Source: Amphiscolops sp. MND2022 (Eukaryota). From it: 64,000 bases of DNA. The stretch lies in the NCBI GenBank assembly GCA_964187785.1, contig OZ076409.1, forward strand, positions 8,992,001 through 9,056,000. The letters run 5' to 3'. The translations under genes were made by a program, and so were the position numbers. The notes under the pieces were generated by a model. It was not told the origin of the DNA and ran no database searches. It saw only the letters and a list, made by a program, of their open reading frames with translations. This document shows, piece after piece, positions 4,305 to 46,000 of the stretch; the stretch's first letter is position 1, and each line of letters starts with the position of its first letter.

Positions 4305-4306
4305 TT

Positions 4307-4323: not shown

Positions 4324-4427
4324 CAACTCGTTGGTGGACGACCCGGACTAGAAGAAGACGACTCGTTGGTGTACAACAGAAGTTTGCCCAGAAAGAACAA
4401 GTGTCTGATTCTTGGAGTCTCTGACTT

Positions 4428-4660: not shown

Positions 4661-4681
4661 TTGTTTTGATCAAGTGAAGAA

Positions 4682-9917: not shown

Positions 9918-11712
9918 TTTATGGATGAAATATTCAAAAAAACTGGGCTTATCCTTACGAATATCCTAACCTCGGTAATTTTCAGGAACCGTTAAATCTA
10001 ACAAAAGAAGTTTTCTGGTCAACACTAAAACAAACAATTCCACCAGATGAAGAAATTAACCGAACACAAGAAATTATTAAAAAGTTTAACGTAAAAAACG
10101 GACAAGAATTAACTATGTCGTAATTAAAAATGGATGTTCTACAATTAACTGACGTATTCGAAAACTTTGTTGAGAAGGCTACACTTGAATACAGCATCAA
10201 TCCTTTGTACTCCTATTCTCTACATAGTTATACATGGAAAGCTGGTTTAATATTTACTAATATTAAATTAAATTTCATAAAAGATAAAGAATTATTTCTA
10301 CTACTTGAGAATAATGTTCGTGGAGGAATTTCAAGTGTAATGGGACCTCGTTATACTGAATCGGATGAAAATACGAAACTTTTATACATTGATGCAGATA
10401 ATCTTTATGCATGGGCAATGAGTCAATACCTTCCTACTGGAGACTTTAAAAAGATAAAGCTCTGTTGTGAATATGATTCTGTACTGATGAATGAAATTAA
10501 AGAAGACATTTTGAATACACCAGATGATAATGAATATGGCTACTTTATAGAATGTGATTTGGAATATCCAGCAGAAATTAAAGAATAAACCGAAAACTTT
10601 CCATTCTGTCCTTATAAAACAAAAGCAGATCCAGAGTTGTTTACAACGTATATGAACAGTGTAAAACAACCCAACTACAAACCAACCGAGAAACTTATGT
10701 GTGACCTAACAAACAAACAAATATATATGATACACTACAGGATGTTGAAATTTTACACTAAAATGGGGATGAAAGTAACAAAGATACGTACAATTTACAG
10801 ATTCAAACAATCACTTTGGTTAGAAAAATATACTAATCATAACACCCAAAACCGCATCAAAGCAAAAACAAACTTTGAAAAGGATCTCTACGAGCTTATG
10901 AACAATGTTTTTTTTTTGGTAAGACAATGAAAAATGTAAGAGAAAGAGTAAACTTAGATATTATCCCCCACACCAATATTGATCAAATAATAAAAAGACA
11001 ATCGAAGTTAAGCTTCAAAGGAATAAACATGCATTACTCCACGTTTAGTTTATACAAGTTTGATAAAGAAAAGACCGTTTTTGATAAATCAATTTACTTG
11101 GGATTCTCTGTTTTAGAATTGAGTAAATTGTTAATGTATGAGTTTTATTATCACAAATTACAATCATACTACAACAAAAATGTCAAACTGCATTATATGG
11201 ATACAGACTCATTCATTTTAAGTATTAAAACTGGGGACCTTACAAAAGACTTGGAATATTTCAAAAATGATTTTGATTTCAGCGAGCTCGATGAAAATCA
11301 TGAGTTGTATGATACTATTAACGAGAAATGTTTAGGTAAAATGAAACTAGAAACATCACCAATCATTGAATTAGACAACTTCGTAGCTTTGAGATCTAAA
11401 TCATATTCTTTTAGCTATGGGGCAACGCAAAAGACAGTTCAGAAGTCAAAACAAGAAAGAATACAACATACACCACCCTACACACAATTTATAAATTCAT
11501 TATATAAATCTGAAACAACTACTGCAACTAATTATTCTATCCGTTCAGATGCTCACAATTTAACTGTTCAAAAGCAAGATAAACTAGCTTTGAATCTTTT
11601 TGATGACAAGCGTGTGTACCTAAATCCAATACAAAGTTTATCATGTGATAAACACACCCAGAAAGGTGATTGTCACTGTATATATTGTTTGAAGTTAATT
11701 GGTTTGTATTAA
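9918..11712 (+). pseudogene. polB: Protein-primed family B DNA polymerase, 3' catalytic part, disrupted
   Basis: RGGISSV, YIDADNLYAWAMSQYLP (motif A), LYELMNN (motif B, altered), YMDTDSF (motif C), LNLFDDKR; several stops and frameshifts. Confidence 0.92.
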
Positions 11713-21340: not shown

Positions 21341-22080
21341 CCCGGTACGGTATGTTACGCGGAAAAACAGGAAAAACTTTTTTAGTTCAGTTCGCTAGTC
21401 TAAATAGTGCAATTTAGTGCAATAATATTTTGTAGAACTTTTAAGAACTATTTTGGTCAGTTCGTGTGGATAGAGTCACTATAATAGTCGCGTTTCACTT
21501 CATGAAGCGCCGACTAAAAACATTGCTAAGAAAACACAAAAGCTTCTCCTCTAAGAAAAGGCCTTCGAAGATGCTGGCAAAAGCCATGTACATACTGATT
21601 ATTAATATGCAACGTTATTGGCCGAGATTTTGACCAATTAAAATCAAAGTCGGTTGTGATAAGTTATGGGGTTACAATGTTGGTTGGCAATATTGGTCAA
21701 TGCAATATCTAAACTCAAGTTCTTATTGAATGCAATTATCGAATGTAGAACCTGAGAAGTAAAACTCCCACTCTGGGAGTTTCGTTTAAAATACTGATCT
21801 TCGAAAAAAAATTTAAAAAATAGGTACCATTGTAGGCTGATCACCATAGCATGCAGATTGCATTGCGTTTGGTTTTATGTTATAGTATAGTTGACCTGTT
21901 ACCGACTTGTTCAACAGTTATATGTAACAGCGTATTTTCTGTGTATTTACCCTAGTCGAACCTGCCGGACAGTTTTCCATGGAAACATCCATTCTAATTT
22001 TTTGATAAACATAGAAAATACTGAAAGCACTCATGGAGAAATTTTGTAGGATTACAATGCAGCTTCCGCTATTTCAATTA

Positions 22081-23606
22081 TGTGATAATCCTCACCTAGG
22101 CTCTCTGCATCAGACTCTTCGTCTGAATGTATAGTTACGTCTACATCTGATTCAGCTCGAAACAAAGGCTTTGCAGGATGTCTAAGATCTTTCATTTTAG
22201 AAGCCCTAAGAGGATAATCGTCATTTTCAGAATCAGAATTTCCAATGTTTGATGCGTGAACTCCATTAGACCTATCTATTTTGGATCCCGACGGTTGCTG
22301 ATCTCTGTTTTCGTTAATTTCTGACCTTGGATTTGTTGCCGTAGAAGCGCTTTTGTTAGACTTTATCTCTTTTAAGATTGTTTCCAGTTTGTTTTCCATC
22401 TCTTCTCTCATTTTTTCAATTCGATCATTATTCTTTTGTTCCATAATTTGGGTCCAGGCTTGAATTTCATTACTAACTACACTGGGTTCGATCAACTGGC
22501 CCTCTGAATTGTTTTCACCTAAATTTTCTTGAACAACCGTATTAGAATTAGTTAAAGTCTCATTACCTGTAATGGGTATTCCTACTTGAGTTACTTCCAC
22601 TTCTCTTTCTGGGGAAGGAGTCTCTAATCTCCTAGATCGTCTATTGCGTTTGTTTCCCATATTGCTTTGGGTGAAAATGGTTTTTGGCTTTTGGGGAAGA
22701 ATTTGAATTATCTTGTCTATTTGAAATAACAAGACACTAGAGTATCAGCAAATTACCAAAAGGTTTACAGATGTTTGAAGAAGCAACTGCACTTGTTGAC
22801 AGTTCAGGATTGAATGAATTCTCCTTCAGTTTTTAGAATGAAATAGCTCCAAAAATACCATGACACTCATTTTTACTGCAATCATTATTTGGAAAAGACA
22901 AAAATAGGATTACGTCAGGGTAACGTCATTCTATTTATAGCATCAGCTGAATTGCATCACGTTCTAAGTATATTTAAGGAAAGGACTAGGGAAAACCCTG
23001 GAAATTACCTAGAATGCGATATAAAATACATTTAAGATGGTTTCCAAATAGCATTACTTCAGCTTCCAAAGCTATATAGAAGGTCCTGCTAAAACCGCAT
23101 AATGACGAGTATACGTCACTACACAATCCGCAGAATACCGCATAGTGTTTCTGCAAAAAAAACGTATAGTGACGAGTATGCGTCACTCCTCGAACTGTAG
23201 GGTGCCGCATAGTGAATCTTGACAAAAACGCATAATGACGAGTATGCGGTACTGCTCGAACCGCAGACTACCGCATAGTCGTCAGCACAAAATGGTATTT
23301 AAACTAAATTGGGCTAAATAAGGATCAATGTTACGTAACATATTGCTCATCAACACAAGTTTCCTTTAATCTAACTCGGGTTTTATGCAATTGTTTGCTC
23401 TCAATGACATGTAAAACTAGGCCCTTTTCACATTAAATTGTACAAGTTATTTACATGACTTTCGAAAAAGAGAAAAGGCAAAATGAAAACAAATAAAACA
23501 AAATGTTTATTGTGAAAGTTTCACAGTTTTCAGATGATGGTCAGACACACTGTTCGCTTCAACTACTGTTGCTCTCCGGATCCCACGCAAGTTCTGGGTT
23601 GCGACA
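22081..23606 (-). repeat. 3' LTR of element A (contains a copy of the gag 5' region)
   Basis: Near-identical to 37196-38721; ORF 22052-22732 repeats the gag N-terminus. Confidence 0.96.
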
Positions 23607-24600
23607 GTCCTGCATTTTTGAAAGTGAACAGGGCTGCCTCAAATCCATCGATGAAAGCTCGTGACCTTACATTGCGATCTCTCACAGTTTCCGCTTCATA
23701 CGCTGTTGCGAGGAGGTACTCCCCGAGAATCTCCAACCCGATTTGATCATACGTCCTGCCACACCAGTCGCAAAAACCAGCGATGTTGGGCATCACAGTG
23801 GGGGACAGGCGATATGCGTCTCTCTCTCTGGGGGGCAACAACAGGAAACTTGTACTGTGGCTAGTTTGTACTGTAAGTCCATAGCGTGCTTGTTGTTGGG
23901 CATGCAAACCTCCTGGGCTGGCTATGAATATGGGTGCGTTCTGTGGAATTTGGATCATCATTGGGACGACGTTCTGCTGTAGTGGCATACTAATAAAAGG
24001 AAAATTTGGGTTGGCAATAATTGGTCTGTTTTGATAGACACTGTTCCCAGAACCAGGATTCACTGGTTGTACTTCCTGTATGTCATTTCTTGTTAGGTCA
24101 AAGTTGCTCGTTTGAGGCAAGTAACCAGGTGGGTATGTCGGCACAGGACAGGTAACCGTTCCTCTGCCCCTACCAAGACCCCTTGGAGTCGGTAAAATTG
24201 AGGCGGTCGGACGGCCATAGCTATTCGCAGGCATGCTTCCACTCATTTCCAGTTCATCTGGGGACTCTGGGGATTCTTCGAATTCTGTATCTATAAACGA
24301 TGGTGGCGAGACTGAACCATTGCTCGAGTGTTCCTCCACCAGTTCCATCAGTTGTCTTTCGATCTGTGATCCATCAGTATCAATGACCTCCTCAGTTTGG
24401 TAGGGAATCGAAAAGGAGGGAAACAGAGTTGCGGCGGCTGCGCCCACAAAGGCTGACATGGCATCTGAGGAAGGGCCTCCCACTCGGAATCTCTCGTCCA
24501 GAGCTTGAACATTTCCTGGTTCCACCATAAACTCTTCCCCGGACTCACTGGAAACGTCGATAACTGAGGGCGAAGAGATCTCGTCTATGTTGGTTTGCAT
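23563..24600 (-). CDS. Element A 3' accessory ORF (acidic/Pro-rich with C-terminal CxxC domain), ends inside the 3' LTR
   Basis: 345-aa ORF with ATG; GFCDWCGRTYDQI..EI..GEYL...RAFIDG aligns by eye with the element B ORF at 54547-55218. Confidence 0.8.
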   Translation of the reverse strand: MQTNIDEISSPSVIDVSSESGEEFMVEPGNVQALDERFRVGGPSSDAMSAFVGAAAATLFPSFSIPYQTEEVIDTDGSQIERQLMELVEEHSSNGSVSPPSFIDTEFEESPESPDELEMSGSMPANSYGRPTASILPTPRGLGRGRGTVTCPVPTYPPGYLPQTSNFDLTRNDIQEVQPVNPGSGNSVYQNRPIIANPNFPFISMPLQQNVVPMMIQIPQNAPIFIASPGGLHAQQQARYGLTVQTSHSTSFLLLPPRERDAYRLSPTVMPNIAGFCDWCGRTYDQIGLEILGEYLLATAYEAETVRDRNVRSRAFIDGFEAALFTFKNAGLSQPRTCVGSGEQQ

Positions 24601-25942
24601 TCTTCTGTTTTATTGTTGGGTTCTACTGTAATGTATTTTTTAGAGAAAGTTCTCACAAACTTATTTGGAGTGAAAGAGCTGCTGAATGTGAATTGAATTG
24701 AAAACCATATGGTGATCTCTCTTCTCTTTCCTTCTGACTTTGGAGGAAAACCCGCGGAAAAATTGCGTGTCATGTTCTGATCCTTTAACTTCCCTTATAA
24801 GGGTTTTATAGAGGATAGGTTTTCGGGTTTCATCCATAATAAGTTGTAAACAATTTCCATAAAAGGTGTTTCACTTAAAGCTCCAACGGATCATCAGTCA
24901 TCATCAAAGCTTACAGTTTTCCTCTGATATTCAAATGATATATAAACAAATTCATCCTAACTTCAAAGTAACTAGCTAAGAAATATTTTCATGGAAGTAT
25001 TCATTTAAACAGTTCAGAATTAAATATATTTAATCCTTCATGACTAGGTAAACATGAAAATAGAAAATATTAACGTGAATGTTTCATTTCAAATTCAGAT
25101 TATTACAGGATCAAAGTTTATTTTTAAGGAAAAACATAGTTTAATCCCGGTCCTGCAATTTTGAAAAATGCAACAGGGTTAGCAATAGTGCAAATAAGTT
25201 TACATGTTTATTGGTAAATCCATTTAGGAAAACTTGCAAAGGGTACCAGCAGTCTAGAAGAGATCTCGTCTATGTTGGTTTGCATTCTTCTGTTTTATTG
25301 TTGGGTTCTACTGTAGTGTATTTTTTAGAGAAAGTTCTCACAAACTTATTTGGAGTGAAAGAGCTGCTGAATGTGAATTGAATTGAAAACCATATGGTGA
25401 TCTCTCTTCTCTTTCCTTCTGACTTTGGAGGAAAACCCGCGGAAAAATTGCGTGTCATGTTCTGATCCTTTAACTTCCCTTATAAGGGTTTTATAGAGGA
25501 TAGGTTTTCGGGTTTCATCCATAATAAGTTGTAAACAATTTCCATAAAAGGTGTTTCAGTTAACGCTCCAACGGATCATCAGTCATCATCAAAGCTTACA
25601 GTTTTCCTCTGATATTCAAATGATATATAAACAAATTCATCCTAACTTCAAAGTAACTAGCTAAGAAATATTTTCAAGGAAGTATTCATTTAAACAGTTC
25701 AGAATTAAATATATTTAATCCTTCATGACTAGGTAAACATGAAAATAGAAAATATTAACGTGAATGTTTCATTTCAAATTCAGATTATTACAGGATCAAA
25801 GTTTATTTTTAAGGAAAAACAGAGTTTAATCCCGGTCCTGCATTTTGAAAAATGCAACAGGGTTAGCAATAGTGCAAATAAGTTTACATGTTTATTGGTA
25901 AATCCATTTAGGAAAACTTGCAAAGGGTACCAGCAGTCTAGA
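24572..25942. repeat. 685-bp tandem duplication inside element A
   Basis: GAAGAGATCTCGTCTATG at 24572 and 25257; copies differ by a few substitutions and one indel. Confidence 0.93.
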
Positions 25943-26639: not shown

Positions 26640-29600
26640 ATGGATTCTACACCTGGCGGGTCAGGTTCTTCAGGCAAACGAAGATCCAGAAAAGATCAAT
26701 CGCCACATCACCGCGACGACTTTTGGAGTGATTTACCTCTCAATCCGATGTCCGGTAAGCTCAACTCATTTGTTTTGATTTGGTTCATTTTGATTCAGAT
26801 TTGAGACTTTTTGGTTTTTTGCAAAGCTGGCCAGGCTTGCAACTTGAAAATGGCTAGCGAAAATGTCTAGTCCAAATTCGGGTTTTTTGAAACGTTTTCG
26901 CTTCGAACTTCTAAGCTACTTCCGTTCTACTTTCATTTCCTGTCCCCGCGTCCGGTTTCAGGCATTTTCAAACGTGTTTCGCTTGCTAGATCAGATCCAC
27001 TTCCTTCTTTCATTAGGTAATAGATCATTGTTTTAGTTGAACTCTGGACTTCTCGGACTTCACCAGAAAAATCGCCTCACAAAACTGCCGCCACTTCAGA
27101 AAAATCTCCTTCTGTAAAGACGCCTGACAAAGTGTTTACCCCACTAGGAGTAGCTTCGCCTAGAGCAGCCAGTCTCCAAGTTCCCTTTGTGTCTCCTAGT
27201 GCTCAACCTCTCAGCATTGACGAGGGTATAGAAGTAGTAACTACCCCTGCATCTGTGAATCGTGAAGAGAACTGCTCAGCACAGGAACCAAAACAGAGAG
27301 CTGAATTACACTCCCCAGATAGACGTGTCAATCTTGGTGAAACAGCTGCAACTACCCCCACCACTAACATGGGCGATTTTAATCCAGTATTACAGCATGA
27401 CTTTACCGGGACTTATCCTGCCCCCCAAATTGCCCAGGCTTCTCCTTTCCAACTCGGGCAGTATTTGACTCCAACTTTACTTGATGACGCTACGGGGGAA
27501 AATCCCACTCTACTCGATGACCCCGCCAATTCAGAGATTGGAAATCTTGGACTTCAAGAAACCACCCGCACTGCTCCTACTGAAGGGGACTTTACTGACG
27601 TTGCCTATCCCAGCCTTAACGTCACTCGGCAGGAGATTCTGACACTAAGTAGTGTCTTAGAACGAATCCCACAGAACTTCATGTCCGGCGAAGGGGTAGA
27701 TGCTAATCAGCCCTTATCGCTAACTGTCGTGGATCACACTCTGGATCCTACACTCCTAGCTACATCAAGTCAGGAAGACCTTCCCGGACCCTCATCGTCC
27801 AGACCTCTGTCATCTGAAGGGCATGAAAGGCAACAGACAACACATGGCAAGAGGAGGAGACCTAGGTACTCACTGACAGTCAGTATGCTCAGGAAACATC
27901 CAGTACTTAAATTTTCCGCAACCGGTCCTCTGGATGCTGAGAAAACACCTTACAAGTGGTGGTGTAGAGTATGTAGGACGGAACTATCGCTGATGAGCCG
28001 GGGACCGTTGGAATTAATTTCGCATTACCGTTCAGACACTCATTTGACGAAAGAACACCGAATTCGCATGGAAATTCCTGGCACCCCACTGTTTGACAAG
28101 GATGGGAAAGAAATTCTAGGGATTTCCCTTCAGGAAGCAAAGAAGGTGGCTAGAGACTCCCACCCAATTGCTCCCCAATTGGACTCACGTCATCCTTTGG
28201 TCGGCCAATCTGCTGTACCTGCACTAGGAGTCGTATCTAGTCCGACCGACAAAGTCCTCTTTCAAATCGCCGTCTTGGAACATGGACTCAGACATGGGGG
28301 TCACATTAAGAGCGTCACAGGGATCTACGAGGAATTGTCTCGACTGATGTCCAATGACCAATCGACCACCCAAAATTGGAGTGAGCAACGAGTGTTTGTA
28401 AGTACTTTTCTCTACCTTGCTGATCTTAGTTAGCATTCCCTTACTAGGTTGTTATTCATGCTATGTTTTTTCAACAGGGAATTCTCGTGTACATGTTCAG
28501 AGAATTGATGAACTACTGCGTTACCATGACCACTTCTTCTGGGGCATATTCACTAGCAGTACAGCATTCACCAACCCATTCCTTTGTGATTTTATCATTC
28601 TGGTCGGGGAATGTCTTTCACCGTGTCTGCTTAGGCAGTTCTCCTCGAGGACTATTACTCCCCCGGAGGATTCTTAATTTGCTTGCCTCTTTCCTCAGCC
28701 TTTTTGACGTTCCCCCTTCGTGTATTGCACTTATTGGGGTTGGAGACAAGTTAGATGATTGCTTGTCAAACACTTTACCAGGCTCAAAAAGACCATGTAT
28801 TGTCAATACTTATGGGACTACCGACCTCGAAGTTAGTTTAACACTGCCGACAGTCCAAATAATTGAACGTCACGATTTTCGCACAATTTTGGACTTTCTC
28901 CTCATGAAATTGAGGACTGCACTTGACCGTGACTGGTTGCAGAGCTTGCCTACCCTTCATAAGGTATTTCTCACTCTTGGCTGTTTTCAATTTTGTTTCA
29001 CACAATCTTAAAGTCTCTCGTTTCAGTGTGTAATTCGCCTCGAGTACTCATTAGATGAAGCATCAGTTATCATTGAAGAATTGTCAAACCATTGGGATCG
29101 TGTTCGGGAGCATTTGAACCAGGTAGCAAGACTCCCAGTATACCGATTCCACATGAGAGTGGTTATTACACTTCCCAATAATCCCATTTCTTTGGAATTA
29201 CTTTGTTACTCAATATATTTTCTCTTAATTCAGCCGAACACTCTCGACGAATGTTTCCGCTTGGATACAGCCTATTTAGCCAGACTCTTCATCATCAGAT
29301 GCGTGTTAGACCACTGTTAGTTGCTCCACATCTTCTGATAAAGTATTGTAGTATCATTTGTTACCGGTTTTTAAATTTTCTGTTCAATCATTTTGTAATT
29401 CGTGCCTTCCCGTTTCGAAATAGGAGCCGTGAGGTCGTCATTTATCCATTCTACCAGTCATTTACTGTAGCACATGCATTTGCTTTCAATTTTGTAACAA
29501 TGATGAATAGTCATCGTATCTCCATTCGCATATTTGCGTATAACCATTTGTATATGCCTAAGGTAGTAGCATATAATCGTCACTGCTATTTCCGCATAGT

Positions 29601-31008
29601 GACGCATAGTCGTCGCACCTCGATCCGCATGTTGACGTATAGTCGTCATACCTTGATCCGCATGGTGACGTATAGTCGTCATACCTTGATCCGCATAGTG
29701 ACGTATAGTCGTCATACCTTGATCCGCATAATGCCGCATAGTTAATTTCTTTCAATCCGTATAATGGCGAGTATTCATTGCGCTTCAATCCGCATAATGC
29801 CGTATAGTTCCCGTATGATATTCCGTATAGTGTAGATATTTACTATACGTTTGCTCTCGTTTCATATTACTATGCAGCATATGAAATTGATTCAGACATA
29901 GCTGATCAATTAGTGCTGTTTTTGTGTTGTTTGTCCAAACGTGTTGGTGCAATAATATATTCCGAACAAATGTGTTCCATTACGTAGATTTTGGTATGTT
30001 TCAGATAATTCGGCCTTTTCGGAAGTAGAGAAGCGCATTGAAGGCGGATTTCGTTTGTACAATCAATTTGCCGTCTTCATATACAGTCAATTACAAAGTA
30101 TACTACCCGATAGTGTGCTAGGGAGTATTTCCGATTGGGACAGATATCTCACTATTGATCTCGACCAAACTGAGCTTCCTTACAAGACGTCTAGTGAATT
30201 TATTTTGAATGAAGACTTCCACAAGTTGGTTTTGGCAAGTAGGTTACCCCGTCCGGGGAAATTTGTGGACCAATCGATCGCCTTTTGTAAGGCTTTCTGC
30301 AAGTTACTGCTGTGCCACGATGTCATAAAGTCGGACTTAATCAGGGGGTTGTCAGCTTTTGACTCCAGTGTTATGATCGAGGGTCCCGAGGAACACTATT
30401 CCAGTGCAATTGAGAAGCTGTCGTGTTACTTTTCTAGTGCCGGGTGGATTTCAAGCAGCGATAAAGTAAAGATCATTAGTCAGTATCGTTCCTTTGTTAC
30501 TAAACTCCGTGCTGGACCAATACCAGAATACGAAGATTGGGTACATTTTTTGTCGTCTCATTATGAGATCCGGTGTCGTCCAGAGTTGCTTCAGCTTTAT
30601 AAGTACTCTTGCTTATGCTTGCCTCCTCTTATCGAAATGTCTCCAGAATTCACTGTTCCAGTTCTACGTTTAGAAGGTAATACTGAGTCCTTTCAGTCAT
30701 GCTTGCGGAGTTTACAGGCTTCCTATTTAACTGTCCCACACGTATCAAGTCTGTATCGTGATCCAAAATCTATCCCTCGAGTCTTCCGGCTTCTGGGACG
30801 TGGTGAGGATCTACTTACCGACAAGAGCTTTTACAATCTACTTTTACGAACCGAGAAGCCACCCATAACTTCAAGCAGTACAACACCTAGTGTTAGTCGG
30901 CACAGCAGTATAAATAGTTCGCCGTCCCCTGACCCTTCACTAAGCAGAGTTAGCCTGGAAGTTCCTCGCTGTGGAGACCTGGAAGCTGGAGGAGCATCAA
31001 AAAAATGA
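26640..31008 (+). CDS. Spliced antisense accessory gene of element A (~1047 aa): disordered N-terminus, BED-like zinc finger, degenerate hAT-transposase-like body. Predicted exons 26640-26754, 27037-28397, 28478-28963, 29027-29122, 29234-29315, 30005-31008
   Basis: All five GT-AG introns keep the frame (3144 nt total); WWCRVCRTELS...SHYRSDTHL; homologue in element B. Confidence 0.75.
29570..29810. repeat. 30-bp tandem repeat in predicted intron 5 of the antisense gene
   Basis: Unit GATCCGCATRGTGACGTATAGTCGTCATACCTT-like, ~5 good copies. Confidence 0.85.
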
Positions 31009-31227: not shown

Positions 31228-34200
31228 TTAGTATCTGTAAGAGTCAGAGTAGTTTGGGTTGGGATTGGGGCGTAAGTTGTATTTTTCACCACGAGTATTT
31301 ATGGGTTCTTCTCGCAATGGGGTATTTTGTGATTTTTCTAGGGTTTTTTGGGTATCATCAACCGATGAATTATTTGGTTCTTTTTGAGTTTTTTGGGTAT
31401 TTTCATCATCTTCACTGATGTGTTGTGGAATTTCATTTTCATGATTGTCGCAATTTTGATCTGGTTCAGTGGTCTGTTCCACTGGGCTCCCCCCACTATT
31501 TTTTGAAGATCCTGGGGAGGGAGGGCGGTTATCATTAGGTATTTGGATTGGAGTATATTCGGTTTCCTCAGTGTCTTCTGAGTATTCTGAAGGACCATCT
31601 TCAAACGGATTAGATCCAAAATTTGTATTCCATGATTGGGCATATAGATCATCATTTGCTATAGGCATCTGGTCATCTTTTTGCCAATCAGTTTCGCGGA
31701 CAAAAATATCTGCTAATGGAGCTTGCGGAGTGAATTTTCGCAGGCGTATCCTGTGTAGCAGTTGCGTTTTGTTAGTACCAAGTCTCCTGACAATATAATT
31801 TTTGTTAGGGAGCACTTTTTCCACTTTATATGGACCACACCATCTGAATTCTCGAAATGGTATTTTCGTCGCTTGCGTGTCGGCTTTTGGGTTGAGAATG
31901 TAGCAATAGTCCGTCGTTTCGAGCGGTGCTGCTTTGGCTTTCCTATCATAGTAGGCTTTGTACTTGAGATAGGATTGCATGATATTTTTCTTTGTTTGAT
32001 CTAAAAGGATTTTCATGCGTTTTTGTATTTCTTCTGCCACATCTGCCTGTGGTTGATATCGTGGGTTAGGGTTATATCCGAGTTTATAGTCTAGGATATT
32101 ATGTGGTATTATGCCATGGAAGACTCGTGAAGGTTCACAACTGAGTGATGCATGGTATGATGTGTTATGGTTAAGGACTGCTAACGGGAGATATTTATGC
32201 CAGTTATTCCTGAATTCGCCTGTTGCAGCTTTTAGGTGTGTTTTCACTGAGGCATGGGTTCTCTCGAGGAGTCCTATTGTTTGGGCATGTTTCATTGTTG
32301 CGTGTTTAAGTTCAATTCCCAGCACTGCAGCAACTTCGTGAGTTACTTGAGTGTTGAATTGAGTGCCTAAATCTGTGATTATCGTTGTTGGAAGGTAGGT
32401 GTGCTTGCATAGTATATCCATGATGACTCTTGATACTGCTGTGGCGGTAATACGAGTCACGGGATAAGCAAACAAGTATCTCGAGAAGACATCTATTGCT
32501 GTGATGATGTGATCATAACCTCCGCTAGAGGGGAGGTTTGGTAGAATATCCATCTGTAGAATGTCTTCCGGGCCAAGATCCCATTCTGGGCAATTAAGAA
32601 GTTCGGTTCTGAGGAGATCGTTGTTGATACGTTTCGTTTGAATGCAGACTTGGCAGTTACTGACCCATTTTTTAATGTATTTAGCCATACATGGGTAGTA
32701 ATATTTTTGTCTTGCTTCCTGAATCATTTTCGTGATTCCTGGGTGGTTTGAATTATGGCCATGAAGGGCTTGTAAGAGTTCATCTAAAAGTTGAACCAGT
32801 AGGAGAATCTGGTAGTGAGATGTGGTTCCTGTGTCCGTATAGTATTTTCGGGTGAGGACTTCTTGTTTAATTTCTATTCTTGTTATGTTTTGTAGGTAGT
32901 GTTGGTATCTGTAGTCTGATGCCAACTCATTCTCGTCGAAGGGGTTGCCTTCGATTTTTGCTCTCAGGTTTCTGAGGACTACGTCATTATTCTGCTCGAG
33001 GCGGATTTTTGCATTGTCCTTGAAGTATCCTGATGAAATAGAGATTAATCCTGAGGTGGGTTTGTGAAATTGTTGTAGTTCAGCGACCTAATTTTCGGGG
33101 TCGTTGTGTGTTTCAGTTTGAGCTTGATTTCGGATATTTTGTTTTTCTTCCCGAAGTTGTGTTTCGTCGATTTCATCATCTGGGAGAACATAGATTTGTT
33201 CTTCTTCAGCGATGCCTGTTGATTGGATATTCACTTCAATTGCTTTTGTGTGAATATCATTACGAATATTCATTTCAAGTTTTTCTGTTGGGTCGACTTC
33301 TGTTCTAGATAAGAAGTCTGCTGCGGTATTCATCGAGCCAGCAACATGGGCGATTACAAAATTGTATTGCAGGACATAATCGCATGCATTCCATAGTGCT
33401 GGAGGAATCATTTTTGTTTGGAAAAAACTAGTTAATGATCGATTGTCTGTGAAGACTATGACTGGGAAGGTGGTTCCCCACAAGAGGTGGCCAAATTCCA
33501 CGAATGCAAAATATATGGAAAGAAATTCTTTCGCATATATTGACATTTTCGTTTGAGTTGGATTAAAAGTTTTTGAACCGAATGCGATGGGTGCATAGGT
33601 TTTACGTTTGGATTGCAGTTTTTGGTTTGGGTCGTCTTCTATCATTATTGCGTATCCTGCTGCCATAAAACTGGCATCGGACATGACTATCAATTGTTTG
33701 TCTTTCAGGGGTTGCTTTAGTGCCAATTGACAAGAGTTTTCGAGTAGTTTGTTGAGGTTTGTGAAATCTTCTACCAAGTTTGTTGGTACGTAAAATTTGG
33801 ATGTTTCTTTAAGTAGTTTAAAGAAAGGAGAAAGTCGTTCTGAAAGGCGTGGAATATAGTTGCGATAGTAGTTTAAAAATCCGATATATCTCTGCAACGC
33901 CTTCTTTGATTTTGGAAAGCGAAGTTTTGAGAGGAAGTCTTTCACTTTGTCGGCTTGTGGGGCGACTCCATGGGGAGTTATTGTGCGACCCAAGAAATCA
34001 ACTTGTTTGACTCCGAAATGACATTTCGACTTGGAAAGTTTCAATCCCGCATTGCGCCTGCATTCGAAGACTGTTCTGATGTTTGTGCACAATTGTTTTG
34101 TGTCATTCGCTGCTATGCCAATGTCGTCTACATATTGGGCACATTGGTCTGCTTTTATTGCCTTGTCCAGGTACTCTCTCATGAAGCTTGAGAATGCAGA

Positions 34201-36117
34201 GAGTGATCTGCTGAAGCCCTGGGCGAGACGACGGTATGCAAATGTTCTGCTTGCAAAATTAAAAGCTAGCATCTGAATTGATTGGTAGTCTGCCATTTGT
34301 AGGCAGTGGTAAGCCTGGGAGCAATCTAGTTTGCAGAAAAGTTTTTTTCATGCCATGTGTTGAGCTGCATCCGACAAAGTGCTTACCGGGTGATTATTAT
34401 TGGTATAATCTTCAGTTATTAAGTTATTGATTTTCCTTAGGTCAACAAGGAGCCTAAGGCGCCCATTGGGTTTGCGTTGTGCAAATATGGGACTCGCGTA
34501 TTTAGAGAAGGGTAGATTTGTGATAATCCCATATTTGAGGAGAAGTGCAAGTTCTACCGTGATGTCATCCTTTAGGTTAATCGGCGTTGGTAGGCTTTGG
34601 CTATAAGCAGGTCTGTCATCATTTGGTGTAAGTTTTATTTTGAATTCACGATTTATGCCAATATCGAAACGATGTCTGGCAAAAATGTCATGGAATTCAA
34701 TGAGGATTTCTTCAATTTCCTGTTGTTCTTCATGGTTGAGTGTCGTATCAGACCAGTCGAAGTTCGACAGGAAAGCTTTTCGAGAAGATTCGTTGTCATG
34801 TGGATTCAATTTCTCGAGTTCTTTTAGTTCGAGAAGTTCGTTGTAAATTCTTTGCTGAATTGGGGTGTAGGTAGCTGGGTCACCTGGTTCTTCAGGTGAT
34901 GGGAACCAGTATGTTTCGTGGTCAGTATTTGGTTGGGGGACCTTTAGCAATTCATTTATGTAGACCTCTGTTGTCTCTTCATATTGTATCATGAAAGATA
35001 GCAACGCTGGGTCTACCGGTTGGATGTGTTTAATTTGTTCTGGAGTTAGTATCTTGAAATCCGCTAAATGGGTATCAAGGGTTATTGTATATGGGAGTTC
35101 GGAGAAATTGATGATTTGATATCCGATGGCATTGTTAGTGACAGTGCTGAGTGATGATGTGATAAATATGCTATCGTGGTTTTCAAATTGTTGTGATGGT
35201 GTGACAATTCCTGTCGCATCATGATCCATCAGATGAGGCATTTTGCTTGCTATGGCAAGTGTTTCCCCTGGTTGTAGGGTATAGGTATTTTCGGCAAACA
35301 ATGGTGTTGCTTGGCGTATTGCTGTTTGTGTATCAGGCTTGAGCTGCATCGAGAGGTAGGGAAAAGTTAAGATGCCTTGACTGACATCAAAAATTGCATT
35401 GTTCCTTCTGAGGAAACAAAATCCGATGAGTGGGTTTGGTAGGTTTTTCATGACGATGAAATTTTCCCTCAACATGAAAGCAGCCACTTCGAATTCAAGT
35501 AATACAGTACCAATTGGAACTTCCAGTTGTCCATTAGCCACCATAATTTGGAAGTTTGGTGGGGGACCAGTTTCTTTTATAGCTTCACTTGCTAGGAGTT
35601 TGATTTTGTTGAGGGCTTGTTCAGAGATTGCGCTTGTACGCGCTCCTGTATCGATAAGACCATCAAGCGTAAGTTTTTCGAAATCCATTGGTATGTAGTA
35701 CATATGGCGTTTTCTCTTCAATGTCAAGGAGGTTGAGATTGGAAGGTATGACAAGTTCCGTTCCTTGTCGAATTGTATATGTTCAGAGAGATCTTCATCT
35801 AAAAGTGGTTGTTTTTCTTCATTGCAAGAAGGTTTTATTATAACATGAATTTTTGGAGTGTGGTGAATTTCTGGAGTTGGGTCATTTTTGGGATGGGTTG
35901 GTTGTTGTGGAAAGTAATTGTCTGGTGCATCGTGCAAAAGTTCGTATAAGTCTTCAGTTTGAGTTTCTAGAGTCGATTGCTGCGAATTTTGTGTCGTTAG
36001 TTCAGTTTCGCAAACTGCTGTTTTTGTGGGTTTTGGGCTCAGCGGATGCTGCCAGTCATCTGCTAAGTTTTGTTTTTGTGGTGATTTTGTGTAGAGGCGT
36101 GGCGTTTCTAGTTTAAA
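31228..36117 (-). pseudogene. pol: pol of element A (protease, RT, RNase H, integrase); single frame with two in-frame stops
   Basis: LIDTGA; RLLVDLRKIN; QYVDDI; MSDAS..YAKEFL..FTDN..ADFLSR; H-H-C-C; MDIL..ITDLGTQF..LERTH; WCGPYKV. Stops at 34348 and 33088. Confidence 0.95.
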
Positions 36118-37775
36118 TCCTTCGACGAGGATTGTTGTTGTCGTTCCATTCTTGGTTTGATTGGTTTTTTAGCTTGTTTATAGTTTTCGATCACCTTTTT
36201 CTGGGCTTCTGTGAGAGTCCATTTAGGTGGTCTATTTTCCATGTTTGCGCCAAAGTAGCAATTTTCTTCATCATGTCCCGGTGTATTGCAATTTTGGAAT
36301 TTTTCAGCATCTGGGTCTTCCTCAAGTTTACGTCGTTTGGCTAATTTGGGGCATTCAGCCATCATGTGGCCTGTCTCTTTGCAGTAACGGCATTGATCAT
36401 TTTTGAAGGTTTTATTCGGTACTGTTTTTGGTGTTTGTGTTTTGGCTTTTTCATTTTGTTTTTTGTTGGTTTTTTCAGCGTTTTGTTCTTTTTTCGTGGC
36501 CGTCATCTGGGTTTTCACCAGGGGTTCATCAGCTTCCAAACCATTTAGCTCCATCTCTCTTTCGAGATGTTTGACGATTTGGTCGTATGTTCCATTTTCA
36601 AGGTATGCTTGATTAATGGACTTTTTAAGGTGGGGAGGCATTTTAGCGTAGAGTAGGTTTTCTATCATCTGATATGCACTCTCTTGGAGTTCCTCTAAAA
36701 AATCTGGAAGTTTCTGGTGTTCTGGGTCAAATGCAAGTCTATTGAATCTGTGCTTAGCTGAGGCACTAGATTCCGGCTTGACATACTTTCTGCGAAAGAC
36801 TTTTAGGATGTCTTCCAAAGTCGTTGTTGGGGTTCGTTGGATATTTTTAAACGTTTTGAGTGCCAAACCTCTGAGATGTGCATGGAAATGGTTGATTTTC
36901 ATTTCCTCAGTTAGGTTTGGTTGCATTTTTAGGGTTGTATGGAACAAGTCTTCAAAGTATTCAAATTTCTCATTTTTCTCATTTTTTCCATTGAAAGTCA
37001 ATGTGTTTTTCGGATGAAACAGTGATGGTTGTGTGTTTTTGTTAGCTAATCGTTCAATTGCAAGTGCAATTTGATTGACTGGGTCAAGTGGTTTTGTTGT
37101 TAAATTTGGCAGATTTTGGTCTGCGTGGAATCCTGCTGTGTCATTTAGTTTTTGTGAACTTTGTCTATGGAGTTGTCGGTTGGCTCCTGTCACCATGTGA
37201 TAATCCTCACCTAGGCTCTCTGCATCAGACTCTTCGTCTGAATGTATAGTTACGTCTACATCTGATTCAGCTCGAAACAAAGGCTTTGCAGGATGTCTAA
37301 GATCTTTCATTTTAGAAGCCCTAAGAGGATAATCGTCATTTTCAGAATCAGAATTTCCAATGTTTGATGCGTGAACTCCATTAGACCTATCTATTTTGGA
37401 TCCCGACGGTTGCTGATCTCTGTTTTCGTTAATTTCTGACCTTGGATTTGTTGCCGTAGAAGCGCTTTTGTTAGACTTTATCTCTTTTAAGATTGTTTCC
37501 AGTTTGTTTTCCATCTCTTCTCTCATTTTTTCAATTCGATCATTATTCTTTTGTTCCATAATTTGGGTCCAGGCTTGAATTTCATTACTAACTACACTGG
37601 GTTCGATCAACTGGCCCTCTGAATTGTTTTCAACTAAATTTTCTTGAACAACCGTATTAGAATTAGTTAAAGTCTCATTACCTGTAATGGGTATTCCTAC
37701 TTGAGTTACTTCCACTTCTCTTTCTGGGGAAGGAGTCTCTAATCTCCTAGATCGTCTATTGCGTTTGTTTCCCAT
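36108..37775 (-). CDS. gag: gag of element A, initiating inside the 5' LTR
   Basis: MGNKRNRR start at 37775; TFNGKNE..FEYFEDLF capsid-like region; CRYCKETGHMMAEC knuckle. Confidence 0.9.
   Translation of the reverse strand: MGNKRNRRSRRLETPSPEREVEVTQVGIPITGNETLTNSNTVVQENLVENNSEGQLIEPSVVSNEIQAWTQIMEQKNNDRIEKMREEMENKLETILKEIKSNKSASTATNPRSEINENRDQQPSGSKIDRSNGVHASNIGNSDSENDDYPLRASKMKDLRHPAKPLFRAESDVDVTIHSDEESDAESLGEDYHMVTGANRQLHRQSSQKLNDTAGFHADQNLPNLTTKPLDPVNQIALAIERLANKNTQPSLFHPKNTLTFNGKNEKNEKFEYFEDLFHTTLKMQPNLTEEMKINHFHAHLRGLALKTFKNIQRTPTTTLEDILKVFRRKYVKPESSASAKHRFNRLAFDPEHQKLPDFLEELQESAYQMIENLLYAKMPPHLKKSINQAYLENGTYDQIVKHLEREMELNGLEADEPLVKTQMTATKKEQNAEKTNKKQNEKAKTQTPKTVPNKTFKNDQCRYCKETGHMMAECPKLAKRRKLEEDPDAEKFQNCNTPGHDEENCYFGANMENRPPKWTLTEAQKKVIENYKQAKKPIKPRMERQQQSSSKDLN
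36111..36117 (-). promoter_or_regulatory. -1 ribosomal frameshift slippery site T TTA AAC at the gag/pol junction
   Basis: Heptamer correctly phased just before gag TAG; the -1 frame is open into pol. Confidence 0.8.
37182..37195 (-). promoter_or_regulatory. Primer binding site of element A (TGGTGACAGGAGCC)
   Basis: Abuts the LTR end; identical in element B; resembles a tRNA-Leu-type PBS (identity inferred). Confidence 0.8.
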
Positions 37776-38721
37776 ATTGCTTTGGGTGAAAATGGTTTTT
37801 GGCTTTTGGGGAAGAATTTGAATTATCTTGTCTACTTGAAATAACAAGACACTAGAGTATCAGCAAATTACCAAAAGGTTTACAGATGTTTGAAGAAGCA
37901 ACTGCACTTGTTGACAGTTCAGGTTTGAATGAATTCTCCTTCAGTTTTTAGAATGAAATAGTTCCAAAAATACCATGACACTCATTTTTACTGCAATCAT
38001 TATTTGGAAAAGACAAAAATAGGATTACGTCAGGGTAACGTCATTCTATTTATAGCATCAGCTGAATTGCATCACGTTCTAAGTATATTTAAGGAAAGGA
38101 CTAGGGAAAACCCTGGAAATTACGTAGAATGCGATATTAAATACATTTAAGATGGTTTCCAAATAGCATTACTTCAGCTTCCAAAGCTATATAGAAGGTC
38201 CTGCTAAAACCGCATAATGACGAGTATACGTCACTACACAATCCGCAGAATACCGCATAGTGTTTCTGCAAAAAAAACGTATAGTGACGAGTATGCGTCA
38301 CTCCTCGAACTGTAGGGTGCCGCATAGTGAATCTTGACAAAAACGCATAATGACGAGTATGCGGTACTGCTCGAACCGCAGACTACCGCATAGTCGTCAG
38401 CACAAAATGGTATTTAAACTAAATTGGGCTAAATAAGAATCAATGTTACGTAACATATTGCTCATCAACACGTGTTTCCTTTACTCTAACTCGGGTTTTA
38501 TGCAATTGTTTGCTCTCAATGACATGTAAAACTAGGCCCTTTTCACATTAAATTGCACAAGTTATTTACATGACTTTCGAAAAAGAGAACAGGCAAAATG
38601 AAAACAAATAAAACAAAATGTTTATTGTGAAAGTTTCACAGTTTTCAGACGATGGTCAGACACACTGTTCGCTTCAACTACTGTTGCTCTCCGGATCCCA
38701 CGCAAGTTCTGGGTTGCGACA
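37196..38721 (-). repeat. 5' LTR of element A
   Basis: TGTCGCA...TCACA on minus strand; CTATAAATAG TATA-like box at 38046-38055. Confidence 0.96.
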
Positions 38722-40186
38722 AATTAAAACTGAAAACATTTTCACTTCTTCATCACGTTGTTTTCACGCGTAAGTTTCTCAAGTAAGGACCTAATGTAAT
38801 CACCGTTAGTCAATAGCACGCTGAATATGACGCTACTATGATGTTTATAACGTGACTGAAGATTCTTTGCACTGAAATCGTGGTAAAATTATTAAGGTCA
38901 CAGCTGCTTTCAAAATTAGAATGGAATCTTGATGAAACCTGCAAAACTTCGTGCCTCGGAATTTCCGCCAAATTTAGGATGCATTTTATAGGCAGCTTGA
39001 TAAAATTAAATTGATTAATTAAAATTTTGATGCATGGAAGTCTCCTGTAGAATTTTATAAAATCATGAAAAATTAGCTTGGTAACCTACAAGTACTTGTG
39101 AAAAGTTCAAGCAGTTTTAACCAAGGTAGTCAATCAACCTTGTCCGTGTAAATCTGAGTATTTTAGCGAGATATAGCGTCTCGACGCCGATGCTTCATAT
39201 ATGTAAACAAAGTTATAGTGTTTTACATAGAATGTCGACCAAGTGCAAGTAACTCAGTAATGTTGGCGAAAATGGTTGCTATCTTGACCTACGAGTGTTT
39301 CAAAGACATAGCTTCTAGTTTCCACCAAGTCTCTTTCCTTTTCTATTCCAAACCACTAAGCATAAAAATATCATTTAAAAAGATCTGCTTGCATTATCAG
39401 GAAAAAATTACAAAAATTAGAAATTGTATGTTTTGCCAAACTTTCCTCACATTTGCACTTTTTCCTGGTTTTCACAAAGTTGAAAATATGTTTTTTTAAA
39501 TAAAAACGTTGGGTCAATCAATAGTCTCCTGAGGATGCTGAAAAGATTTAATTGAAAAACTTTCAAAATAATCATCAAATTCTCAAGTACAATTTTCATC
39601 GATTATCTTAATACATGTACTGCAGGACTCATAGACATTAAACACAGGGTGTTTTTTTCTGATTCGAAACAACATGTCGATCAAAACAATTCAGCAGGTT
39701 CGGGATTTTATCAGGAGTCCCAAAAAAATTTCAAAAATTTTCGATTGTAATGTACTTTTTTCGAACAAATCCAGATTTCAATTAAAATTTTTAAAAATGT
39801 TGCATTTTCAAACTTCAGTATGGAACGTAAAACTTTCAAACAAACAATGTTGTACACTAGATATAATTCCAAGAAAATTTCGTGGCTGTTCAATTTTTGT
39901 TTTCTTGATAGTTTACGATATATATTATTTTGAAATTTGCTATTTTAAGCAAATGAGGATACTATTTTTTAGAACGCTAGGGTACGCATATCACAATAAC
40001 ATAGTCATCATCACACTGCGTTTTTTTCCGTAGTTCACTCCTCCAGCTAAACAATAGATGAAATCAACAAGCTAGCAGTAGGCTAGGAATGGAAAAAGGA
40101 TTTGTTTTTCATGCTCAACATGAAAACCTCAGTTTCATCTCAAACACACTGCTTTTTTAAAATTTCAATTGTTTTCATACCCGAAC

Positions 40187-40266: not shown

Positions 40267-41903
40267 TGTCGCAGGCTGCCGCCTGTGACGGCAATTACTA
40301 CCAAATCCCTTCAGTAGACGATCTATCTAACCCCCCGCCAGGAGTATTCCCTATTTAGAAGGTTTGACAACAATGGACCGATGGTACGGACGGCCTCACT
40401 CAAATTGAGGCAAATATAGAAGAACTGCGTCCAAAACATAAAGGACCTTAGGTCGATACGGCCTCATCAAACAATTGTGTTAAAATTAATCACAAAACAC
40501 TCTACTTTATAAAATTTACCGTTGCTTAATATTATAGTTAGTTTGTGCTTGATTTACTTGTTGATTATTGTTGAAATAGTAATGTACCAAATGAATTGGA
40601 ATTAGCAATGTAAAATGATCAATTTGAATGATGTATTAGAATGCAATTGAAGCGCAGTAAGGAAACGTGTTCAAATGTACTGTTGTTGTGGCTGATTGTA
40701 CGCAACGTCGAGTGCTATATTAACCAATCAAATCGAACTAGCTATACAATTGGTGACGCCGCATGGACGTTACGTCCGATTTGGCGTAATTGCCAATCAC
40801 GCTGTCTGTGATTTTTCTAATGACATGAAGTGTTAATATTGGAAATATAAACATGTAAATAGCATATTCAGGCATAATAAAATTCCTCCATGCGTATTTA
40901 TATGACATCATAATCTCCAGCTACAACCCTTAGCTGCTTCTCTTTGATGCTATTTTTGTCCTTACAAACATGATGAAATAGTGATGTAATGTCCCTAGAA
41001 CTGTTCCAAAACCCCATCTATTGCTATTTTTAGAACCATGACCCGCATCATTCTGTGTGTAACCCCACCCAAACTATAAATAGCGGGAACATTGGAGAGC
41101 AAGGACCAAAACTTTCACAATCTTGATACAAACAAGTCGATATAATATTGTCACAATACTGAACTTTGAGTTTAAAACTCTGCTGATTCATACTTTGCTG
41201 ATTTGGATTATCTTGTTAGTTGATATTTACAATTGACTGTGAAACTCAAATCCCCTTCTCATGCCTTCCACGAGAAAGCAAAAGGCTAAAGAAGGTCGTT
41301 CTAGACAGTTAGACATGCTGTCCGATGTAGAAAATGTTGACATAATGCTTGGAAGTTACTCTAGGGAAGATGAAGAGAATAATGTTAGTGAAAATGAAGT
41401 GAATTTGGACTTAAGGTCTAGCAGACCACAACAAAGCTCAAATGTTATAGGAGAAGACTTTAGGTCCTTGCTTAATACCAACAGCAGGGAAAACAGTGAA
41501 ATCACAATTTAGACTTCTAGGTTGATAAGCGAGGAAATTTCCAATCAAATGTCTAGAAAACTCAATGAAATTAAAACTGGTTTGAATTCCCAAATTAAGG
41601 ATGCAATTACAGCTGCAATAACAAGTACAGTGCTTCCTTCCATCCAAAATACACTAGAAATGCAGGGGATACCTAATTTCACCATGGTGGACCGGGAGTC
41701 CAACGGGCCACATCCTAGCCCAAGGTCGACCGATTTCACATTAAAGGACCGAAGGTCCAGTGGGCTACAATGGAACGCCGAAGTAGGAAATTTGCAGAAA
41801 ACATGGGAAAATCGTTCTAGAACATGTTTTACACAGGAAAATAGTAGACTGAGGTCTAGAGAGAGTTCAACAAACTCTATAACTAGCGAACAAAATCGCG
41901 ACA
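40267..41903 (+). repeat. 5' LTR of element B
   Basis: TGTCGCAGG...TCGCGACA; CTATAAATAG at 41074-41083; copy at 55118-56753. Confidence 0.96.
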
Positions 41904-43027: not shown

Positions 43028-46000
43028 TTTGCCACGACTCCAAATACATGAAAAACTCCGTGTACGACAGTACATAATATCCGACCCTCCAAATATATAT
43101 TACACTGAGTTTCATACAGCTCTTAAAGAAACTTCATCAGCTGACTGGCAGCAGCAGATGAAAACTCCACCTAATTTTCTTACCACTTCGGACTCTATGT
43201 CCAACAGACTACAAACTGATACTACTACTATACGACTTATACCCCTCATTGATGACTATAACCCATACTATCCTGACCCCGACTATGGTTTTGACCCCTA
43301 CTGGGAGGCTAACTGCTACAATCAACATCATCTGTACTTCTACCACAATTTTGACAAACAGAACTCGAATATAGAACCAGATTCTTTTGAAACTGACCAA
43401 GCCCTAAATACAGTTCTTACCAAAGCACGAGTTGACCCATAGCAACATGGCGCACAGCTCGCCCATCAAACCACTCACTCCAAAGTCGGTGATGAATTTC
43501 ACCATGAGGGACCACATAGGTCTCCTTGGCCACAGCCGTTGCGGCACGCTATGTGAGCACCCTGGTCACCAGAACAGGGGAACCGGACTGTGTGCCGCTG
43601 ACTACCAATCTTGGCCTCAAATACAAACGACGAATGCTCTACTTTCCAATGGATTTTGGCGAACTAACACTAGATGGCCTTGTAAACACGGGAGCTCTAT
43701 CTTGCGCAATCCCTGAAGCTGATCTACGTAAAATCCAATTATTAGCCCCTCAGTCTATTATTAAAAAGGGTCCAGCTCCCAACTTCCAAATAATGGTTGC
43801 AAACGGACAGCTGGAAAATCCTAAAAGCACCGTCGAATTGAAATTTGAAGTCGGCGACATAGATTTCGATGAAATCTTTATAGTCATGGAGAAACTCACC
43901 AGTCCATTAATAGGTCTTTCCATCCTTCAAAGGAATAACACCATTTTGGACATGCGACAAGGCGCCCTAAATTTTCCTTTCTTCTCAATGCAGCTCAAAA
44001 CTGCAGATCACAAATATATAAATGTCATGGAACCCATTTGCATTAGAGAGGATGTAACCATCCCACCTAATGACCGACACTCGGTCCTCATGGCTTCACA
44101 ACTGTACGAGGATACTACAGTTACCAGGATCCTTCAACCGAGCAACACCCTTACGGATGATGGCGACATTGCTTTCTGTGCTGCTCTGGTCACATTGACC
44201 AATGGTCAAGTATCCGTTCACCTGAACAACTCTACCGACAGTCCCTATACCCTCAGAAGAGGTACACAAGTTGCTAATTTAACTGTCCTTACACCGGAAC
44301 AGATGAAATATGTCAAACCTATTGACCCGGTGACCACATGGCACCTTTTGCAGGACAATCCTGAAAACGCTGCTTACTACGCAAGCAGCTTGATCAAATC
44401 TACTAAGCCTGAGGACTTCAAGGAAAACTACTGGTTTCCAACACCAGAGGACCCTGGGGACCCTCAGCATCATACCCCGATTCAAAAACGGATTTTGTCA
44501 GAACTGATCAATCTCCAGGAATTGGAAAACTTTAATCCTCAGGACGACTCAGGACGTCAATTCCTATCCAATTTTGATTGGACAGATTCTATGCTTCAAC
44601 CTGCTGAGATAGCCCGCATAGAAGACCTACTTGTTCAATTCCATGATATATTCGCAAGACATCGTTTTGATATTGGCATGAACGAAGACTTCAAGGTCAA
44701 ATTGACCCCGAAAGATGACTCTCCGGCCTACAGTCAAAGTTTACCAACCCCAATTAACCTCAAAGAAGACATCCTTGTGGAACTAGCCTTACTACATCGC
44801 TATGGGATTATTACAACACTTCCATTCTCGACATTGCTTTCTGTGCTGCTCTGGTCACATTGACCAATGGTCAAGTATCCGTTCACCTGAACAACTCTAC
44901 CGACAGTCCCTATACCCTCAGAAGAGGTACACAAGTTGCTAATTTAACTGTCCTTACACCGGAACAGATGAAATATGTCAAACCTATTGACCCGGTGACC
45001 ACATGGCACCTTTTGCAGGACAATCCTGAAAACGCTGCTTACTACGCAAGCAGCTTGATCAAATCTACTAAGCCTGAGGACTTCAAGGAAAACTACTGGT
45101 TTCCAACACCAGAGGACCCTGGGGACCCTCAGCATCATACCCCGATTCAAAAACGGATTTTGTCAGAACTGATCAATCTCCAGGAATTGGAAAACTTTAA
45201 TCCTCAGGACGACTCAGGACGTCAATTCCTATCCAATTTTGATTGGACAGACTCTATGCTTCAACCTGCTGAGATAGCCCGCATAGAAGACCTACTTGTT
45301 CAATTCCATGATATATTCGCAAGACATCGTTTTGATATTGGCATGAACGAAGACTTCAAGGTCAAATTGACCCCGAAAGATGACTCTCCGGCCTACAGTC
45401 AAAATTTACCAACCCCAATTAACCTCAAAGAAGACATCCTTGTGGAACTAGCCTTACTACATCGCTATGGAATTATTACAACACTTCCATTCTCTAAGTA
45501 CGCAAGCGCCCCATTTTTGCACAAAAGAAACCCAATGGCAAACTGCGACTTTTAGTTGACTTGCGTAAAATAAACAACTTGATGTCGGATGATTACATCA
45601 ACAATAACCATCCAGTAAGTACGCTTACAGACTCGGCCCAACATATGGCTGGGAAAAAGCTATTCTGTAAGTTGGACTGTTCGCAAGCTTACCATTGCCT
45701 ACAAATGGCGGACCAACGGTCCATTGAAATGCTTGCTTTCAATTTTGCCAGCAGAACTTTCGTGTACAGAAGATTGGCACAGGGTCTCAGCAGAGCCCTA
45801 TCGGCCTTCTCTAGTTTCATGCGCGAATACTTGGACAAAGTCATCAAAGCAGACCAATGCACCCAATATGTTGATGATATTGGCATTGCTGCTAACGATG
45901 CTGAACAACTCATCAACAAACTGAGGGCCACATTCCAATGCATACAAAAAGCTGTTCTCAAGCTAACGATGCATAAATGCCATTTTGGCGCAACGGAAAT

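Follow-up and report, generated by a model that had tools for sequence, protein, structure and literature searches.

The window analysed here is a stretch of 64,000 nt from Amphiscolops sp. MND2022 (contig OZ076409.1) and contains element A, an LTR retrotransposon on the minus strand whose gag open reading frame begins far inside the 5′ LTR (Table 1). The gag ATG (37775) is position 947 of the LTR, and therefore 193 codons plus 1 nt, i.e., 580 nt of coding LTR, lie ahead of the LTR end; the codon of Met194 consists of the final LTR base and the first two bases of the primer-binding site (PBS), the junction being translated as ..EDYH-MVTGA. A sequence-only reading of this DNA had assigned ~193 gag codons to the LTR (37775 to 37196) and had described the attachment end and the PBS as coding; both statements agree with the ORF, the LTR borders and the placement of Met194 across the junction. 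The PBS, TGGTGACAGGAG (37195-37184), matches over 12 nt the 3′ end of a host tRNA-Leu, including the non-templated CCA, and further exact matches of the window copy to the primer tRNA, in the range from −600 to +400 nt, are at most 9 nt long. The pattern made from the 12 PBS bases occurs at 877 places in the genome, and 3 of the 10 loci scanned were called as tRNA-Leu; sequences matching the 3′ end of tRNA-Leu, which primes this clade, also form a dense tandem array at G000:C8:35587798-35638465.

Table 1. Features of element A and element B in the window (positions in the 64,000-nt stretch)
Feature	Position	Strand	Basis or remark
5′ LTR of element A, TG...CA ends	37196..38721	-	1526 nt; window self-comparison
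3′ LTR of element A	22081..23606	-	13 mismatches vs. 5′ LTR; self-comparison
Target-site duplication (TSD) TAATT, left copy	38722..38726	-	right copy at 22076-22080
gag ORF of element A, 555 aa	36108..37775	-	
LTR-borne part of gag, 193 codons + 1 nt	37196..37775	-	purifying selection
tRNA-Leu PBS, translated M-V-T-G	37184..37195	-	sequence match
pol (protease, RT, RNase H, integrase), −1 frame	31228..36168	-	in-frame stops in this copy
Basic N-terminal peptide	37740..37775	-	6 K/R in 12 residues
Predicted long helix, residues 60-105	37461..37598	-	AlphaFold2
ATG-free stretch with predicted 5′ leader	37776..37973	-	
Predicted core promoter	37900..37981	-	inferred from sister families
Conserved TGTCA element	37981-37977	-	part of predicted core promoter
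Degenerate TATA-like site, family A	37953-37946	-	
AATTCA, clade-wide	37819..37824	-	ends 43 nt 5′ of ATG; candidate R/U5 border or initiator-like element
gag N-terminal frame in 3′ LTR	22052..22660	-	202-aa ORF incl. 9 host-derived codons
3′ accessory ORF, 345 aa	23563..24600	-	through polypurine tract (PPT) position + 14 codons into 3′ LTR left end
Element B, 214 LTR-borne gag codons, 5′ LTR	41261..41903	+	one in-frame stop; 3′ LTR copy open

The window copy of element A is probably inactive, since its pol carries in-frame stops and its gag is shorter by 8 codons than that of the nearest copies. Immediately 5′ of the gag stop lies TTTAAAC (36120-36108, minus strand), with pol in the −1 frame, an arrangement that we take to resemble a −1 frameshift site. 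At the PPT position, before the 3′ LTR, we found a conserved word that leans towards purines yet is interrupted and is itself coding. Element A further contains a near-perfect tandem duplication of 685 nt (24572-25942) and antisense ORFs (27024-31008, plus strand), one of them with a zinc-finger-like stretch, and a near-perfect tandem duplication of 665 nt is present in the pol of element B (44164-45494). The window also holds a BEL/Pao-type element (3362-9920, plus strand; DUF1759, DUF5641) with 946-nt repeats, the last ORF of which reaches ~50 nt into its 3′ repeat.

The sequence-only reading had predicted a basic N-terminus and a coiled coil for the LTR-borne part of Gag. The former is borne out by the composition of the first 12 residues, and dN/dS over gag codons 1-20 is 0.09 in family A; of the latter, the long helix alone was recovered. 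In an AlphaFold2 model built from a 39-sequence alignment (mean pLDDT 46), residues 1-230 are of low confidence outside this helix, for which pLDDT is 66-91 in 10-residue blocks. By eye, the LTR-borne part begins with a basic N-terminus in each family of the clade, followed by a disordered stretch, an amphipathic helix-like stretch at the matching place, and a second disordered stretch. Further downstream, gag has a zinc knuckle at residues 461-477 (zf-CCHC above the Pfam cut-off) and a weak Ty3_capsid match at residues 254-334 (E 0.004, below the cut-off). The LTR-borne part had no Pfam match, Foldseek with the low-confidence gag model returned nothing at E 0.001, and the best ESM Atlas score for residues 1-193 was 0.77, which gave no lead. 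Because it precedes the capsid and has a basic tip, the LTR-borne part is likely to be a matrix-like module of assembly or localisation.

Selection on the LTR-borne codons

In a protein search with gag residues 1-292, in which 134 of 12,520 candidates were scored, all 134 matches span the query and 124 are free of stops. We took 90 of these 134 copies, picked by protein score (30, plus 60 of the remaining 104), as the family A set. The LTR-PBS junction and the PBS are exact in 88 of the 90, and 80 of the 90 have an open frame with a start 190-195 codons 5′ of the junction. The sequence-only reading had made its proposal depend on conservation of this frame among copies, and the frame is conserved. 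The dN/dS calculation that it had suggested for the LTR-borne codons gave 0.16 (0.12-0.20) over codons 1-193 among 29 representatives of the 90 copies, which is indicative of purifying selection; the corresponding values were 0.88 over the 190 triplets upstream of the ATG, 1.3 in each of the other frames, 0.18 in the linker that follows the PBS, and 0.04 in the capsid region. Among the same representatives, an excess of third-position changes over changes in positions 1 and 2 sets in with the bin that contains the ATG and is absent before it. All 9 distinct indels in the LTR coding part of family A keep the frame vs. 60 of 242 upstream, and synonymous change is nearly nil in codons 193-204, which cover the LTR end and the PBS. 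Where the two LTRs of an element differ, the change dates from after insertion; such comparisons within elements gave 20 synonymous and 71 non-synonymous differences and 3 stops. As these post-insertion changes look unselected, selection acted during transposition. By these measures on aligned copies, the LTR-borne codons are a conserved protein code, and because the frame is under strong selection as protein, the LTR likely serves as both promoter and protein code.

To sample the clade independently of protein similarity, we used the 14-mer CATGGTGACAGGAG, which has 7,527 occurrences in the genome. Of the first 77 places listed, all on a single contig, 70 were taken (the 7 omitted being known family A or B loci), and 69 remained after one place without orientation was set aside. 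The 100 codons upstream of the PBS are stop-free in the ATG frame at 51 of the 69 sites, and at 0 of 69 in each of the other frames. Approximately nine divergent families are represented, in which 103-216 gag codons are LTR-borne. In eight of nine family groups besides family A, dN/dS of these codons lies at 0.10-0.29, and the ninth is saturated; one of the nine contains protein-selected copies of family B. A 3′ LTR was located for 56 of 57 elements and is 98-100% identical to the 5′ LTR; in 31 of the 56, an identical 5-bp TSD is directly visible. In families other than A and B, the LTR end was deduced from the CA-PBS junction. The LTR-borne parts of different families, family A among them, show no significant match to one another (best E 0.036), so that it is their position and layout that speak for a common origin. 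The capsid tree, a quick version with one long-branch row, serves solely to show the divergence of the families. Both the pairs of copies and the leaders counted below are related by descent, and their counts are therefore not independent. In metagenomes, 18 loci with relatives were found, all ≤3.4 kb long and too short for RT plus a 5′ LTR.

Over the 100 nt that precede the start, 58 distinct leaders together contain 2 ATG triplets, compared with 72.5 expected from base composition, and 106 occurrences of the reverse triplet CAT. This depletion of ATG is the mark of a scanned 5′ leader that ends at the LTR-internal ATG. We conclude that Gag is very probably translated from the LTR-internal ATG, in a frame that crosses the LTR end and the PBS under purifying selection. 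That Gag proper starts at Met194 in the PBS, the upstream frame being a relic or a by-product of LTR composition, is hardly credible, although every family has Met194 in frame, with both the capsid and the zinc knuckle 3′ of it: dN/dS, the phase of indels, the unselected PBS sample and the ATG-free leader all favour the upstream ATG, Met194 follows automatically from the CA of the LTR and the TGG of the primer site, and in-frame ATGs are present further upstream. Met194 could nevertheless serve as a second start.

Predicted leader and RNA ends, and possible exchange at the primer site

In sister families, TATA boxes lie 116-193 nt 5′ of the start, and a TATA box follows TGTCA at a distance of 10-12 nt in 13 of 14 such leaders among those listed. 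In family A, a degenerate TATA-like site follows TGTCA, which lies ~200 nt 5′ of the ATG, and candidate start sites are found near 37933-37904; from this placement, the transcript likely starts near LTR position 790-820 (window 37935-37900), i.e., a predicted ~130-160 nt 5′ of the ATG, and U3 would be ~800 nt long. The word AATTCA is found 20-70 nt 5′ of the ATG in 37 of 58 leaders, compared with 0-4 in other 50-nt windows. Of 47 leaders, 7 carry a canonical poly(A) hexamer ahead of this word, 4 of the 7 belonging to family A (background 1.8%). The case for AATTCA as the R/U5 border is weak, and it may mark this border. Provided that one RNA both serves as gag mRNA and is packaged, R and U5 would together measure at least ~680 nt, with 710-740 nt as the best estimate. 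To this extent the long strong-stop DNA that the sequence-only reading had proposed stands; its long coding U5 is less secure, because the coding stretch may be partly R.

Two further candidate poly(A) signals were rejected: AGTAAA at LTR position 730, a hexamer that varies freely and whose counterpart in sister families sits just 5′ of the TATA box, and AATAAA at position 96, which is poorly conserved and far 5′ of the predicted transcript start. No poly(A)-tailed copies ending past the TGTCA element were found, and the inheritance of differences between 5′ and 3′ LTRs, used to map R, was uninformative, as the 260 differences included only 3 shared sites. A block of the words CTA(A/T)4TA and TGACG is conserved 200-300 nt 5′ of the start (window 38055-37975, minus strand; also in sister families), the two words resembling MEF2 and CRE sites, and three 66-nt tandem units are found upstream of this block at 38394-38206.

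A minus strand primed at the PBS can transfer to a second RNA, with R-U5 then derived from one parent and the remainder from the other. Many pairs of copies are near-identical 3′ of the PBS and divergent just 5′ of it. When all sites were considered, the LTR end had the most discordant pairs (55) among 34 boundaries and tied with position 1126 for the number of groups (5); at third positions with the PBS codons masked, the PBS led all 31 boundaries, with 73 pairs in 7 groups, or 27% of the close pairs. Chromosome painting gave 47 supported switches, which were scattered, with no clean peak for R. The exchanged segments stop at the PBS and begin at scattered positions in the coding LTR (~1190-1430). 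These patterns, which are suggestive only, suggest that the LTR-borne part of gag is swapped as a unit between elements, and the scattered upstream ends fit either copy-choice, an established retroviral mechanism, or early transfer within a long R.

The latter possibility, in which most of the coding stretch is R, with a poly(A) site far inside gag, a short U5 and an early minus-strand jump, would account for segments that end at the PBS and begin at scattered positions, and it draws on the weakness of the poly(A) evidence 5′ of the ATG, where 7 of 47 leaders have a signal. We nonetheless consider it rather unlikely: no poly(A) hexamer occurs at one conserved site within the LTR coding part across families, the canonical signals before AATTCA are enriched over background, and copy-choice between two 5′ ends yields equal mosaics. 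A precedent comes from rice Retrosat2, for which a 2-kb R is described as having been proposed from sequence (PMC3485330).

A different partition of the RNA is known from barley BARE, which, in the account of PMC3735527, has two TATA boxes, one for the translated and one for the packaged RNA. If the present clade likewise used separate promoters for its gag mRNA and its packaged RNA, the length of the strong-stop DNA would differ from our estimate. Family A has a second TATAAA in a conserved block at 38054, 279 nt 5′ of the ATG, that might provide the additional promoter. Several subfamilies, however, have a reversed A/T-rich word in place of this TATAAA, a start there would place three ATGs in the leader, and the TATAAA resembles a site for a MEF2-type factor, which also counts against two RNA pools; we regard such pools as quite improbable.

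Under the single-RNA model that we prefer, one RNA would be both translated and packaged and would be primed inside its own coding region, strong-stop DNA of ~0.7 kb would be copied from this primed RNA, and the LTR-borne part of the protein would be a basic peptide and one long helix set in disordered linkers. As strong-stop DNA is able to transfer to a different RNA, related elements would likely trade the N-terminal third of gag, with the primer site as the point of exchange. Compared with Ty1, the predicted strong-stop DNA is ~7 times as long, and since priming would take place on bases that ribosomes also have to cross, translation and reverse transcription would compete for them.

Known elements and LTR ends open to host DNA

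The Pfam order of pol on the minus strand (protease-RT-RNase H-integrase), the direct LTRs with TG...CA ends and short TSDs, and a tRNA PBS that adjoins the 5′ LTR place element A in Ty3/gypsy; together with the 5-bp TSD, the CCHC knuckle and the weak Ty3-capsid match, these are its likenesses to Ty3 and typical gypsy elements. Its relatives at 43-50% are unnamed, and named elements stand at ~30%. In sequence layout it corresponds to the Ty1 type, with the gag start in the 5′ LTR and the PBS within gag, whereas neither the Ty1/copia order, with integrase before RT, nor Ty1's tRNA-iMet primer and extra complementary boxes were found in element A, the primer of which is Leu. Element A is thus a Ty3/gypsy member that is Ty1-like in layout, and not Ty1/copia.

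In Ty1 of S. cerevisiae, gag begins in the 5′ LTR (PMC3522557), the PBS lies inside GAG (PMC4974528), and a 53-nt leader is followed by the PBS at RNA nt 95-104 (PMC5454406). On these data Ty1 has ~13 LTR codons and ~94 nt of strong-stop DNA, compared with 193 codons and a predicted ~0.7 kb in element A, and it differs in superfamily, in its tRNA-iMet primer and in its extra primer-binding boxes from the gypsy-type, tRNA-Leu-primed element A. The ORF of Candida albicans Tca5 is reported to run from nt 382 of a 685-nt LTR, i.e., over ~100 codons, an unusually deep inset whose start site its authors left open (PMC4139406). Tca5 is a low-copy, Ty5-like Ty1/copia element, and the section devoted to it reports no selection test; the present elements are gypsy-type, with 103-216 LTR-borne codons and thousands of PBS sites, and their frame was tested by dN/dS. 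The claim of the sequence-only reading that the layout is far more extreme than that of Ty1 therefore holds for codon number (193 vs. ~13), whereas its uniqueness was overstated, given the Tca5 ORF, which begins ~300 nt inside its LTR, and the occurrence of the layout throughout the clade, including element B. In Ty3, according to the text of PMC4974528, the PBS segment adjoins the 5′ UTR and lies outside GAG, whereas in element A it lies within gag. BARE-1 and Retrosat2, in the descriptions cited above, resemble element A in having long LTRs with a long R/U5 or several promoter boxes; the gag of BARE, however, is said there to start past the LTR (PMC3735527), and the extra ORF0 of Retrosat2 is a separate ORF 5′ of gag-pol. 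Among the titles and abstract openings listed from a literature collection with few subscription papers, none describes a gypsy clade with such a layout. We regard the arrangement as an extreme form, common to the clade, of a layout already known, and not as a new kind of element.

LTRs are non-coding in textbook descriptions, and here the attachment end for integrase and the primer site also have to code for protein in approximately nine divergent families. Annotation that seeks gag only past the PBS would overlook as much as a third of the protein, and fragments carried by LTRs may pass for host genes or may seed real fusions. Every 3′ or solo LTR retains the predicted promoter and a gag fragment that is open towards host DNA: 18 of 30 sampled LTR ends have no PBS after them, and 10 of these 18 keep the start and an open frame that continues for 9-154 codons into the flank. 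If the poly(A) site lies 5′ of the ATG, the RNA of the element itself would lack the fragment at its 3′ end, and the fragment would be carried only by read-out from the promoter of that 3′ LTR. At the opposite end, 56 copies were examined and the junction was found in 52; in 51 of these, the 3′ accessory ORF extends 14 codons across the left end of the LTR. This ORF has no Pfam match.

We propose tentatively, and with somewhat less than even confidence, that the whole gypsy clade has moved the N-terminal module of Gag onto the strong-stop DNA, that the PBS acts as a crossover point at which a cassette of promoter, leader and helix is swapped, that both LTR ends are coding, and that 3′ and solo LTRs in their thousands supply the host with a promoter joined to a helical N-terminus of 100-200 codons, open to the flanking DNA. 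At the 3′ LTR of L015 (locus L278), the LTR-borne frame stays open for 446 codons beyond the LTR end, probably into a neighbouring element.
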